DNA of 64,000 nt from Chloroflexota bacterium (GCA_049324835.1 JBMOMT010000055.1:100549-164548); one strand, 5' to 3'; positions 24,943-30,324 are shown, numbered from the stretch's first letter. The notes: generated by a model not told the origin, from the sequence alone. Program-made: numbers and translations.

Positions 24943-25681
24943 CTTTTCTCCTCTCTTTTCGACCCACCTGAAGGGCCGCCTCCAGCCCGATCTCTCCCTC
25001 GTAGAGGGCGCGGCCGATGATGGCGCCGCTCAGACCGGCCCGGTAGGCCCGCGCCACGTCGTCCAGGCTGGAGACGCCGCCGGAGGCGATGACCTGCCCG
25101 CCGGTCGAGCGGGCCAGCTCGACGGTGGCATCCAGGTTGAGGCCGCTGCCCATGCCGTCGCGGGCGACGTCGGTAAAGATGAACCAGCGCACGCCCCGGT
25201 CGGCCCACCGGCGGGCCAGCTCCAGGGCGGTCGTCGAGGCGGTCTGCTGCCAGCCGTGGGTGCGCACCCGGCCGCGGCGGGCGTCGATGCCCACGGCCAC
25301 CCGCTCCGGCCCGAATTCGGCCAGGGCCGCCTCCACCAGGGCCGGGTTTTCGACCGCCGCCGTGCCGATGACGGCGCGGCTCACGCCCAGATTCAGCGCC
25401 CGCCGGACGTCGGCCAGGTGGCGCATCCCGCCGCCGAATTGCACCCTGGGGCCGGCGGTGAGGATGCGCGCCAGGGCGGCCTGGTTCTCCTGGCCCGCTT
25501 CGTCGAAGGCGCCATCCAGGTTGACCACGTGGAGCCAGGTCGCTCCGGCGTCGGTCCAGTGACGGGCCACGCGCAGGGGATCGCTGGTGTACTCGGTTTC
25601 CCGATGGGGATCGCCCTGCCTGAGCCGCACCACGCGCCCGCGGCGGAGGTCGATGGCGGGGTAGATATCCCAGGTTTTCAT
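24932..25681 (-). CDS. hisA: ProFAR isomerase
   Basis: [35 protein letters not shown]. Confidence 0.95.
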
Positions 25682-26478
25682 GTTTGGCCCTCCACAAAGT
25701 TGCTCAGGATCTGCAGCCCCACGCGCTGGCTTTTTTCCGGGTGAAATTGAACGCCCAGCAGGTTCGCCTGCCCAACGACGGCGGGAAAGGGATCGCCATA
25801 GTCGGCGACGGCCAGGGTGTGCGCCGGGCGGGCCCGGCAGACGTAGGCGTGGTTGAAATAAGCCCACGCGCCGGGCGGCAGATGGGCCAGCAGAGGATGC
25901 GGGCGCGCCGGTTCGATCTGGTTCCAGCCGGTGTGGGGGATCTTGAGGCCGCGCGCCGCCAGATCGGCGGGAAAGCGGGTCACCCGGCCCGGCAGCAGGC
26001 CCAGGCCGGCGTGGCGGCCCAGCTCCTCGCCCTCCTCGAACAGCACCTGCATGCCGACGCAGATGCCCAGCAGCGGCACGCCCGCTTCGACAGCCCGGCG
26101 CAGCGGCTCGACCAGGCCCAGGCGACGGAGGCCGTCCATACAGTCGCCAAAGGCCCCCACTCCCGGCAGCACGATCTTGGCCGCACCGGCCAGGGCGGCC
26201 GGCTCGCGGACGCGGCGCACGCGGGCGCCGACGGCTTCCAGGGCCTTGTGCACCGAGCAGACGTTGCCGGCCCCATAGTCTATCAGGGCAATGGGGTCAA
26301 CGGAGGGGTCAACGGATGGAACGGATGGAACGGAGGGGTCAACGGAGGGGTCAACGGAGGGGTCAACGGATGGAACGGATTTAACGGATGCAACGGATGC
26401 AACGGATGCAACGGATGGAACGGATGGAACGGATGGAGCGGATGGAGCGGATGGAGCGGAGGAGGGTTTCGGGTTCAT
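25678..26478 (-). CDS. hisH: Imidazole glycerol phosphate synthase, glutamine amidotransferase subunit, with ~62-aa repeat-derived N-terminal extension
   Basis: [31 protein letters not shown] overlaps the hisB stop; (P/A)SV and DPSV repeats precede the domain. Confidence 0.95.
26299..26463. repeat. Tandem array C: 17 units of 9/12 bp (AACGGATGG/AACGGATGC/AGCGGATGG/AACGGAGGGGTC) in the hisH 5' end
   Basis: Counted directly from the sequence. Confidence 0.95.
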
Positions 26479-27062
26479 AGCACCCCCTTTGTGGAAGGCA
26501 CAGCGCCGCCGCGGCGCGGGTCGAGGCGGGTGGCGGCGTCGAGGGCGCGGCCCAGCGCCTTGAACAGCGCCTCGGCGAGGTGGTGATCGTCGCGCCCGTA
26601 GAGCAGCCGGGCGTGGACGTTGGCCCGGGCGGCGGCGGCAAAGGATTCGAAAAAGTGAGCGAACAGCGTCACCGGCAGCCCGCCGACCGATGGGCCGCTC
26701 CAGGTCACGTCGGTCACGGCGTAGGGGCGACCAGAGAGGTCCACGGCGACAAAGGCCAGCGACTCGTCCATGGGCGCGTAGGCCGCGCCCATGCGCACGA
26801 TGCCGGCGCGGTCGCCCAGGGCCTGGTCAAAAGCCCCGCCCAGAGTCAGCGCCACGTCTTCGATGGTGTGGTGGGTATCGACGTGCAGGTCGCCGGCTGC
26901 GGCAACGGTCAGATCGAACAGGCCGTGGACGGCCAGGTGGGCCAGCATGTGATCGAAAAAACCGATGCCGGTCTCGATCTGGCAGCTTCCGGCGCCGTCC
27001 AGGTGCAGGTGAATCTCGACGTCGGTCTCGCGGGTCTGGCGGTGAATTTTGGCCTGTCGCAT
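26475..27062 (-). CDS. hisB: Imidazoleglycerol-phosphate dehydratase (monofunctional)
   Basis: [31 protein letters not shown]; no N-terminal phosphatase domain. Confidence 0.97.
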
Positions 27063-27063
27063 G

Positions 27064-28320: not shown

Positions 28321-28787
28321 GGTTTTTCCTTTCTTTGGTTCCGTGCAAGCCAGGCGGGTTTCCAGGCGTCACGGCGGCGGCAGTAGGGTTCGCTCTCCTG
28401 GACGCGGCCGGGGGGGAATATACGTTTCTTTTGCAGCCGCTGGCATCCAAAATTGAGCAGCAGGCCCACCTCGCGCCCGGTGGCGGTGAGGTAGGAGATG
28501 ATCTGCTGCTCATGCCTGGCATCGAGTTCCTCCAAAGCCTTGAGTTCGACGACCAGTGCTTCGTCCACCAACACATCGAGACGAAACTCTCCCACAGGTC
28601 GACCGCGAAACTCGGCCATGAACGTCACTTCTTTGGCAGCAGGCAAGCCACGATCGCTGAGGGCGATCATCAATGCCTCGTGGTACACCTTTTCCGGAAA
28701 CCCGGGCCCCAGCTCTGTGTGCACCTCCATCGCCGCGCCGATCACGGCATACGAAAGCTCGTCGTAAATCGTACTGACCTTGCTCAC
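28317..28787 (-). CDS. GxxExxY protein (PD-(D/E)XK_3 nuclease-like family)
   Basis: [20 protein letters not shown] (GxxExxY), RLDVLVD...VVELKA, QIISYL...GLLLNFG; SD GGAGG before the GTG start. Confidence 0.93.
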
Positions 28788-28788
28788 T

Positions 28789-30324
28789 TTACCCTCCTTC
28801 GGTTCCTATGTTATCTGTGCCATTCACCCTATCCGTTTCATCCGCTCTTTCCGTTCTATCCGTTGACACCGTTTCATCCGTTGACACCGTTTCATCCGTT
28901 GACACCGTTCTATCCGTTCTATCCGTTGATTCCGTTCTATCCGTTCTATCCGTTCTATCCGTTGATTCCGTTCTATCCGTTGACACCCTCTTTTCCGCCG
29001 CTGCGGTGTGGGCGGTGAGCGATTCGGCGCGCGCCAGACGGCAGGCCGCCGCAGAGAGCCGGGCGGCGGTACTGGCGTCCAGGGCCACGACGCTGACGAT
29101 CTTGACGAAATCCAGCACGTTGACCGGCGAGGAAAAGCGGGCCGTGCCGCCAGTGGGCATCACGTGGCTCGGCCCGGCGACGTAATCGCCCAGCACCTCG
29201 AACGAGTGCTCGCCCAGAAAAACCCCGCCCGCGCTGCGGATCCGTTCCGCCCAGGCCGCCGGATCGCGGACGGACAGGCAGAGATGCTCCGGGGCAAAAT
29301 CGTCGGCCAGGCGCACGGCGGTCTCAAGATCCGGCGTGAGCACGATGCCGCCCTGCCCGGCCAACGAGGCGGCGGCGATCTCGGCGCGGCTGAGGGTCTC
29401 CAATTGCTGCGCCACCTCGACCTGCACGGCGCCGGCCAGGGCGCGCGACGGCGTGAGCAGGATCGCCGTCGCCAGCACGTCGTGCTCGGCCTGGGCCAGC
29501 AAATCGGCGGCCACCCAGGCGGGATTGGCCGCATCGTCGGCCACCACCACCGTCTCTGTCGGGCCGTACAGCCCGTCGAGCCCCACCAGGCCGTAGACCT
29601 GCCGTTTGGCCAGGGTGGTAAAGAGGCCGCCCGCGCCCACGATCTTGTCCACGCGGGGGACAGTCGTGGTGCCGTAGGCCATAGCGGCCACCGCCTGCGC
29701 GCCGCCCAGGCAAAAGAGCCGGTCCACCCCGGCGATGTGAGCCGCCGCCAGGGTGGCCTCGGGCACGCGCCCGTCGCGGCGGGCGGGCGGCGTGCAGACG
29801 ATCACCTCGTCGACGCCGGCCACCCGCGCCGGGATCACGGTCATGAGCAGCGACGAGGGCAGCGGCGCTGTGCCGCCGGGCACATAGACGCCCACCCGCC
29901 GCAGGGGCACCATCCGCTGGCCCAGCGCGCCCCCCAGCTCGCCGGTGGTCCAAGAATGCAACGGCTGGCGCTGGTGGAAGGCGCGGATGCGGTCGGCGGC
30001 CAGCGTCATCGCTTCGAAAAGATCGGTGGGCAGGTTCTGCTGGGCCACTTGCCAGCTCGCCGGGGGCGCCTCCAGCGCGTCGAGGGTCACGCCGTCCAGA
30101 CGGGCCGTCCAGCGGCGCAAGGCCTCGTCGCCGCGATGGCGCACGTCGGCCAGGATGCTGGCCACGGCCTCCTCCGGCGTCAGGGCCTGGCCAAAGAGGC
30201 GTTGGATGCCGGCCCGCACCGGCTCCGGCACGGGGCCGTCTCCAAAGGCCGGGTCGCGCCGCCGCAAAAGAGTCCGAGCGGCCTCTCGCCAGTCGTCGTG
30301 GATTCTCAAAATCTCAGTGGTCAT
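28789..30324 (-). CDS. hisD: Histidinol dehydrogenase with ~65-aa repeat-derived C-terminal extension
   Basis: GVYVPGG, GPTE, DLLAQAEHD, APEHL, GDYVAGPSHVMPTGGTARF; tail STDRTESTDRTDR... Confidence 0.96.
   Translation of the reverse strand: MTTEILRIHDDWREAARTLLRRRDPAFGDGPVPEPVRAGIQRLFGQALTPEEAVASILADVRHRGDEALRRWTARLDGVTLDALEAPPASWQVAQQNLPTDLFEAMTLAADRIRAFHQRQPLHSWTTGELGGALGQRMVPLRRVGVYVPGGTAPLPSSLLMTVIPARVAGVDEVIVCTPPARRDGRVPEATLAAAHIAGVDRLFCLGGAQAVAAMAYGTTTVPRVDKIVGAGGLFTTLAKRQVYGLVGLDGLYGPTETVVVADDAANPAWVAADLLAQAEHDVLATAILLTPSRALAGAVQVEVAQQLETLSRAEIAAASLAGQGGIVLTPDLETAVRLADDFAPEHLCLSVRDPAAWAERIRSAGGVFLGEHSFEVLGDYVAGPSHVMPTGGTARFSSPVNVLDFVKIVSVVALDASTAARLSAAACRLARAESLTAHTAAAEKRVSTDRTESTDRTDRTDRTESTDRTDRTVSTDETVSTDETVSTDRTERADETDRVNGTDNIGTEGG
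28831..28983. repeat. Tandem array B: 17 x 9-bp units (ATCCGTTCT/ATCCGTTGA/CACCGTTTC variants) in the hisD 3' end, inverted relative to arrays A and C
   Basis: Counted directly; core TCCGTT is the reverse complement of AACGGA. Confidence 0.95.

Follow-up and report, generated by a model that had tools for sequence, protein, structure and literature searches.

The stretch of DNA analysed here, referred to as the window, comprises 64,000 nucleotides from a bacterium of the Chloroflexota (GCA_049324835.1, JBMOMT010000055.1:100549-164548), and its minus strand carries a his operon with the gene order hisG, hisD, a small extra gene encoding a GxxExxY protein, hisC, hisB, hisH, hisA, hisF and hisI. 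The host is an uncultured Anaerolineae-like bacterium, represented by a metagenome-assembled genome (MAG) of 5.03 Mb in 75 contigs with an estimated completeness of 97.5%. Three genes of this operon, hisD, hisC and hisH, contain arrays of short tandem repeats inside their open reading frames (ORFs), all given here in window coordinates and read on the minus strand. A preliminary description of this DNA had reported three in-frame arrays built from 9- and 12-bp units, and these were recovered by Tandem Repeats Finder together with direct reading; the ORFs concerned are open over their full length. The hisD-tail array (28829-28981, 153 bp) consists of 16-17 units of 9 bases with the gene-strand word AACGGAT, and encodes STDRTE, TDR and TDE peptides that include TVSTDETVSTDETVSTDR and VNGTDNIGTEGG. 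The hisC-head array (28137-28310, 174 bp) holds 15 units, six of 9 and nine of 12 bases (CCATCCGTT and GACCCTTCCGTT), with a frame that reads PSV/DPSV, and the hisH-head array (26293-26460, 168 bp) holds 12 units of 9 bases and four of 12. The gene-strand word of the hisH and hisC arrays is ATCCGTT (units CCATCCGTT, GCATCCGTT and GACCCYTCCGTT; peptides PSV, ASV and DPSV), which is the reverse complement of AACGGAT: the HisC and HisH heads are indeed the antisense reading of the HisD-tail motif, as had been proposed. Higher-order repeats of 66, 54 and 42 bases are present within the arrays, the 66-bp unit reaching a 95% match in the hisC head. Across the 5.03-Mb assembly, runs of at least four TCCGTT words are found in only three places, all inside 2.7 kb and identical with the three arrays, which exceeds what chance would give.

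The enzymes affected retain full-length cores, with the repeats lying outside the conserved portion in each case. The hisD ORF (28789..30324) encodes 511 residues, of which the conserved enzyme extends to approximately residue 447 and the repeat-coded tail occupies residues 448-511; TIGR00069 matches with 487.6 bits (cut-off 243.8) and covers residues 54-446. The hisC ORF (27064..28320) encodes 418 residues with the conserved enzyme beginning at R64 (TIGR01141: 322.4 bits, cut-off 276.55, residues 64-417), whilst the hisH ORF (25678..26478) encodes 266 residues with the conserved enzyme at residues 63-266 (TIGR01855: 208 bits, cut-off 105.4, residues 63-263) and retains C140, H246 and E248, which are invariant in a 27-sequence alignment. 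That the repeats lengthen these ORFs, as claimed in the preliminary description, is confirmed. The gene between hisC and hisH, hisB (26475..27062, 195 residues), is free of any array. In the assembly hisD, hisH and hisB are single-copy genes, and the paralogues of hisC are only 25-29% identical to it. Overlaps of the ATGA type had been described between the hisC and hisH start codons and the preceding stops: for hisH this overlap is with the stop of hisB, but for hisC it is with the stop of the GxxExxY gene and not with that of hisD. The hisC-hisB, hisB-hisH and hisH-hisA junctions likewise abut or overlap. Since two of the three gene-strand frames are free of stops throughout each array, an open host frame alone constitutes weak evidence for its use.

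The small gene between hisD and hisC (28317..28787, 156 residues, GTG start) had been overlooked in the preliminary description, which treated the arrays as free-standing tandem repeats; this view has to be given up. The encoded protein matches PF13366 (PDDEXK_3) with 126.2 bits (cut-off 22) over profile positions 2-116 of 117 and TIGR04256 (GxxExxY protein) with 127.7 bits (cut-off 35). An alignment of 35 sequences shows G27 and Y35 to be invariant and G29, E32, D71, E81 and K83 to be at least 90% conserved, and the window protein possesses all of these residues. Its predicted structure (predicted local distance difference test score, pLDDT, of 87) has Cas4 SSO0001, lambda exonuclease and Hjc as its nearest matches. 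Judged from its sequence, the gene is thus an intact member of the GxxExxY family with a PD-(D/E)XK fold and encodes a putative nuclease. No match to this protein was returned by a sequence search of the PDB, PADLOC gave no match, and in the literature on GxxExxY, PDDEXK_3/PF13366 and TIGR04256 we found no study of function, biochemistry or flanking sequences. On the gene strand, the nuclease gene is preceded by 13 AACGGA words and followed by 16 TCCGTT words: the arrays in the hisD tail and in the hisC head form the two inverted arms of a GxxExxY cassette, which pair with each other in the predicted RNA fold, and the hisH array is a solo arm without a gene. The layout of the cassette is (AACGGATNN)n, Shine-Dalgarno tract, GxxExxY gene, Shine-Dalgarno tract with ATG, and (NNATCCGTT / GACCCTTCCGTT)n, the arm word repeat being (AACGGATNG)n. 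The cassette is positioned exactly at the junction of hisD and hisC, with the TAA stop of hisD (28789-28791) sitting between the GAAGGAGGG Shine-Dalgarno tract and the GTG of the nuclease gene; the solo arm is found just behind the hisH start codon.

The same arrangement recurs at other GxxExxY genes. At least four TCCGTT/AACGGA words within 500 bp were found at four of 23 PDDEXK_3 loci from five other genomes of the Anaerolineae class: two of these (L100 and L109; G009:C4 and G040:C99) have AACGGA upstream and TCCGTT downstream of the gene, in a third (L107, G021:C52) groups of AACGGA and TCCGTT alternate on one side of the gene, and the fourth (L093) holds four same-strand words with a spacing of 109 bp. 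One more such case (L075) was found among the pattern loci. In the host genome itself, two of six PDDEXK_3 loci carry such words, and at the one on contig C11 (G000:C11:115807-117000; L004/L006) 3.8 copies of an 87-base hairpin unit holding AACGGATGG...CTATCCGTT precede an ORF of 271 residues that is made up of two tandem GxxExxY domains, and part of the unit recurs past the stop; this is the second cassette of the TCCGTT word in the genome. A C-terminal tail of the type R[IL]FPP or [IL]PP is common to the window protein (RIFPP...) and to the proteins of L100, L109, L107, L101 and L106. Other paralogues have different words right after the stop (CTCTGTG, CACGAAT, GAGACGC, CTTCGTG and others), and homologues from Bacteroidota, Planctomycetota and Verrucomicrobiota are flanked by arrays of CAGATG-, CACGAAG- or CGCGAA-type together with hairpins. 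On finished replicons, flank repeats at GxxExxY genes were identified by eye in Gemmatirosa, Persicobacter, Treponema and a Fusobacteria isolate, of which a k-mer score flags only Gemmatirosa. The locus L108 (G009:C36:45465-45788) offers a parallel to the window: its GxxExxY gene has 12-14 CGAAGG/CCTTCG words per side in higher-order units of approximately 50 bases and an array length equal to that in the window, and a 323-codon frame, with its ATG just past the stop of the gene, stays open across the downstream array. GxxExxY genes are thus linked across the family to inverted arms of short words, and in a protein tree there are four supported clades with one kind of word each. Using an inverted-flank score (the same 6-mer at least three times downstream and its reverse complement at least three times upstream, within 250 bp), values of at least 3 were obtained for 20 of 43 GxxExxY genes as opposed to 14 of 3000 random positions of the host genome, a result that is indicative only.

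Copies of the arm also exist without the gene. The arm 20-mer TCCGTTCCATCCGTTGACCC is present in 54 metagenome stretches of 41-67% G+C, and neither a GxxExxY nor a His gene lies within 3 kb at any of them. A complementary arm that would form a hairpin lies within 70 bases in about 20 of the 54, as judged by eye, and in 18 there are at least three words in a row, with a spacing of mostly 9 and sometimes 12, 15 or 17 bases. One relative (G021) has 374 two-word matches at many loci against none for the reversed control.

Comparison with relatives shows that the extensions are lineage-specific, as the preliminary description had anticipated. Of 40 related genomes, 28 gave a HisD match, which in every one of them stops at query residue 443-480 of 511; at 27 informative loci the stop follows the conserved AHAxA..R stretch by at most about 50 residues, and at the 28th (L035) a stop is met, followed by read-on into the neighbouring gene. 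One relative (L031, G034:C237) has a HisD that ends in another tandem peptide repeat, AILLRE-like and in four copies before the stop; because this repeat differs, repeat-coded HisD tails have arisen more than once. In a further relative (L024, G022) a cluster of AACGGAT-type words is seen directly after the hisD stop. Among the HisH homologues listed, 110 of 119 are 200-215 residues in length and none reaches 266 residues except a HisH-HisA fusion. One homologue of 249 residues (P0105, 68% identity) has a repeat-like N-terminal extension (..DVHVRSA..DICVHSA..DVRVH) before LIDYG, and two others (P0124 and P0106) have 20-30 extra residues; the junction of hisB and hisH may be a recurrent landing site.

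A different allele is that of L053, a related MAG titled Anaerolineae with 76% nucleotide identity to the window over hisC-hisB. Its hisH lacks the array and starts as ATG-ATC-GCC (MIALIDYG) at the same ATGA overlap with hisB, and since this ATG directly precedes IALIDYG, the window hisH holds an insertion of 183 bases or 61 codons (26293..26475) between the ATG and the codon of I63, which comprises the 16 units of the solo arm. The cassette of L053 has decayed at the same place: an ORF of 65 residues keeps both ends of the nuclease gene and is followed by ATGA and a degenerate hisC head of six units. HisD was not found in the L053 genome with the window query, the MAG being incomplete and the contig beginning only about 250 bp before the cassette remnant. 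Window positions 26446-26478 in the hisH head and L053:448-480 in the hisC head share the same ATGAACCC start followed by TCCGCT, which hints that the solo hisH arm may have been copied from an ancestral hisC head, the match being too short for proof.

A third state is found in run X3, where the organism is about 92% alike to that of the window. In one contig of 5.4 kb, positions 26293-26445 are skipped with six other letters between, which would leave a 12-residue HisH head; in another of 898 bases, position 28981 is joined to 28141, so that 839 bases are skipped and the whole cassette is absent. The 20 letters that bridge this junction contain one AACGGAT word on the gene strand and could be either a scar or the ancestral site. 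The net change at the junction is 819 bases and the start coordinates of both ORFs equal 0 modulo 3; with apparently no in-frame stop in the 20 letters, hisD of the X3 relative may, on the part of the contig compared, continue into hisC, and the apparent HisD-HisC fusion reflects either a real fusion or an unseen difference nearby. As L053 is more distant than the X3 organism, the cassette has either been lost in the X3 lineage or the same site has been entered twice.

Taken together, the arrays are probably the repeat arms of a small and likely selfish nuclease cassette, through which the enzymes have been lengthened in frame. Lengthening would follow because the units are 9 or 12 bases long, are free of stops in the frames concerned and lie in an operon without spacers, where genes overlap or abut. 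The hisD frame runs on across the upstream arm and ends immediately ahead of the nuclease gene, hisC would start at the ATG overlapping the nuclease-gene stop and read through the downstream arm, and hisH would read from its ancestral ATG through the solo arm: HisD would gain a C-terminal tail of 64 residues, and HisC and HisH N-terminal heads of about 62 and 61 residues, respectively. The nuclease might recognise structures or duplexes of its own arm word and thereby promote copying or insertion of the cassette, and the arrays may subsequently have been lengthened in place by slippage or unequal exchange, as the 66-, 54- and 42-base higher-order repeats suggest. The encoded peptides would be neutral passengers; the extensions are most likely tolerated low-complexity additions at protein ends rather than functional domains.

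Several observations speak against this interpretation. A class-wide scan for a three-word pattern was positive in 35 of 401 genomes, with the reversed-pattern control also present in 10 of the 401, and the host genome contains just the three arrays and the one related locus on C11, so that the repeat is not a high-copy family there. The 43 genes behind the inverted-flank score include kin, and its null derives from a single genome of 62% G+C. The window nuclease was not placed among the other genes with TCCG[TC]T flanks, which form a well-supported clade, and sits on a long branch of unsupported placement; because of this we do not claim co-descent of protein and arm word for the window copy. 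Neither a target-site duplication nor excision intermediates were seen, for which reason the mobility of the cassette is something that we infer. The copy numbers of the arrays are supported by a single short-read assembly. Finally, translation of the HisH and HisC heads is likewise deduced from sequence features; the existing annotation starts HisH at an ATT directly after the array (26292; P0006, 204 residues), and an in-frame GTG (28134) directly follows the hisC array.

These last points lead to the strongest alternative, in which only HisD is extended by repeats, with hisC starting at GTG 28134, hisH starting at ATT 26292 and the arrays at the heads of both genes acting as untranslated spacers. 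For HisD the case is clear, as the first in-frame stop comes after the array and the tail must thus be translated; we regard this as very likely. The 204-residue HisH of the annotation fits the alternative, as does the location of GTG 28134 one codon before R64, where the hisC family model begins. An open frame is furthermore cheap when each array is open in two of three gene-strand frames, and the exact full-length ORF products of HisD, HisC and HisH are absent from the protein collection. A full-length AlphaFold model of HisH is of low quality (mean pLDDT 56.7), including its conserved C-terminal half, and since the whole model is poor, the coil and low confidence of residues 1-62 are uninformative with respect to disorder. 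The absence of an alternative hisH start between the array and IALIDYG had been put forward in favour of translation: there is indeed no ATG, GTG or TTG in this interval, but the ATT directly before ALIDYG weakens the argument.

Against this HisD-only scheme, purine-rich tracts resembling Shine-Dalgarno sequences stand before the upstream hisC and hisH ATGs as well as before most other starts of the operon (by eye, with hisI ambiguous), whilst no such tract is found before GTG 28134 or ATT 26292, the sequence upstream of the latter being pyrimidine-rich and array-derived. The tract of the upstream hisH ATG (26478), AAAGGGGGTG, lies upstream of the array, and both ATG and tract are ancestral, with L053 showing the same ATGA junction directly before IALIDYG. 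The upstream hisC ATG (28320) is preceded by a AAAGGAAA tract, which is AAGGAGG in L053, and this tract and the ATGA overlap are kept in both lineages despite decay of the nuclease gene in L053. The array indels in three other runs are moreover all net multiples of 3, although swaps between 9- and 12-base units would suffice to produce this. On balance we consider translation of the HisH head to be likely and that of the HisC head somewhat less so, albeit still favoured, which renders a restriction of the extension to HisD unlikely without depriving it of all weight.

An explanation at the level of RNA is less probable still, although it is compatible with the cassette interpretation: a stem formed between the two arms in the his mRNA could set processing (for example by RNase III) or couple translation of hisD, the nuclease gene and hisC, with the peptides as a by-product. 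The arms are indeed predicted to form a long stem around the nuclease ORF (minimum free energy -379.9 kcal/mol, z = -9.2 from 20 shuffles), and with the hisD stop between the Shine-Dalgarno tract and start codon of the nuclease gene, and the nuclease stop overlapping the hisC ATG, ribosomes that terminate on one ORF would melt the stem ahead of the one that follows. Such coupling is a pure prediction, however; the hisH array has no partner arm with which to pair, and an Rfam search with E values up to 1 matched no family.

It is very improbable that the arrays instead have nothing to do with the nuclease gene, having arisen by local slippage of his-operon sequence and been retained by selection because disordered tails are useful, which is the reading implied in the preliminary description. 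Higher-order repeats such as the 95% matched unit in the hisC head are typical of recent local expansion and array lengths differ among relatives, but the same word in the same inverted layout accompanies GxxExxY genes in other families of the class and the exact arm 20-mer recurs in 54 unrelated metagenome stretches. In addition, close relatives with otherwise similar enzymes either lack the heads and tails or have short ones, and PSV/DPSV stretches are nearly absent from 5.8 billion protein clusters, among which the head gave only five weak, unrelated matches.

The arrays were also compared with independent assemblies; an assembly artefact is one of the outcomes that the preliminary description had named as refuting it. 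Contigs of run X1, which is probably the source run, extend into each array from its two sides without a mismatch and then break off within it, contig cover not being listed for 28167-28280 and 28888-28951, which are parts of arrays. This shows the arrays to be real, with unit numbers that derive from a single short-read assembly. An artefact is barely credible: short reads assemble tandem repeats poorly and the independent contigs do break within each array, but X1 contigs cross into all of them from both sides, arrays with net 3-base indels occupy the same sites in runs X2 and X4 from other studies (relatives about 90-95% alike), a related MAG has a short hisC array, and a miscount of 9- or 12-base units would leave the frames intact.

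Returning to the cassette as source of the arrays, the length of the repeat unit deserves comment. The preliminary description had invoked selection that keeps the units at multiples of three, and such selection is needless: units of 9 and 12 bases also occur in the metagenome hairpins, apparently non-coding and far from His genes, low-G+C contigs included, and the 3n period is thus inherited from the repeat and was not shaped in the His genes. In other Anaerolineae, arms of the same word have spacings of 8-14 bases and are intergenic, the start of the downstream gene coming past the arm. Selection has most likely acted as a filter, with only arms of 3n units in an open frame able to persist at junctions without spacers. 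More speculatively, GxxExxY cassettes could be selfish elements fitted to coupled operons, whose own stop, Shine-Dalgarno tract and start keep the genes chained and whose 3n arms can be read as protein and expand in place into new disordered termini, with a nuclease that would recognise arm-word hairpins or duplexes and drive the copying of full and gene-less units, as a PD-(D/E)XK counterpart of the RAYT/REPIN system. This extended scheme is tentative and less likely than not.

The comparison made in the preliminary description with Rickettsia palindromic elements (RPEs) is apt, given that RPEs and other intragenic miniature inverted-repeat transposable elements are mobile repeats read in frame within protein genes whose host protein survives (PMC10969869). 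As with RPEs, the inserts in the window are read in frame with the host ORF and add residues; RPEs, however, are palindromes of about 150 bp that are scattered over a genome in large numbers and have no linked enzyme gene, whereas the window contains tandem arrays of 9/12-base units, arms of one orientation located at protein termini and gene junctions, only three in the genome, two of which bracket a nuclease gene. The REPIN/RAYT system consists of an enzyme gene flanked by inverted short repeats with far more numerous gene-less copies that form scattered hairpins (PMC3116915). The window shares the enzyme gene between inverted repeats and the gene-less hairpin copies, but its enzyme is of the PD-(D/E)XK fold (PF13366) and not an HUH/Y1 (IS200/IS605-like) transposase, and its arms are tandem words of 6-7 bases at a spacing of about 9 bases. 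A further case is an endonuclease-carrying insertion in which an HNH gene lies out of frame within a host ORF, with read-through of the entire insert (PMC11855218). There too the host frame stays open and residues are added, but in the window the nuclease has a cistron of its own, placed between two host genes, and the arms alone are in frame. What is new here is the simultaneous lengthening of three enzymes from a single operon, through arrays of 13-17 units and with a series of alleles among relatives.

This locus offers a concrete and datable case of bacterial enzymes gaining tens of residues from mobile repeat DNA, in which intermediate alleles still exist in nature: HisH with 0, 12 and 61 extra residues, and the cassette in full, decayed and absent forms. 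It also provides context for the large orphan protein family GxxExxY. In practical terms, gene callers disagree at such loci, with one annotation dodging the array through an ATT start, and tandem arms break short-read assemblies inside operons.

Short tandem words are also known from the short tandemly repeated repetitive (STRR) sequences, which are heptamers of heterocystous cyanobacteria. Similar to these, short tandem words here lie both within and between genes, and the his-operon spacers of relatives (L018 (G037:C111), L011 and L013) hold arrays of 7-8 bases: CCAATTC, TGGTAAAT, GTGGTCA/TCACTGA, GGTAATT and AGTCCTC. A search of the STRR literature returned nothing on Chloroflexota.

Upstream of hisD, the longest hisG ORF (374 residues) spans window positions 30314-31438, with a likely start 39 codons later (MDRQNDV, ATG 31321, preceded by GAGGAG), and the stop region of hisG overlaps the hisD ATG by 11 bases. 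Elsewhere in the host genome there are many other arrays with periods of 18, 21 and 24 bases (for example C59:1-135, C66:17331-17482, C25:5095-5239 and C36:6934-7142), of which several are self-complementary (such as AGGCCCCCTTTCGGGGGC) and some lie at contig ends. A further array, at C19:103608-114290, extends over approximately 10 kb with a period of 146-147 bases, 62.8 copies, a 62% match and a conserved GTTTCAATC... start, and looks like a large CRISPR array seen at double period.

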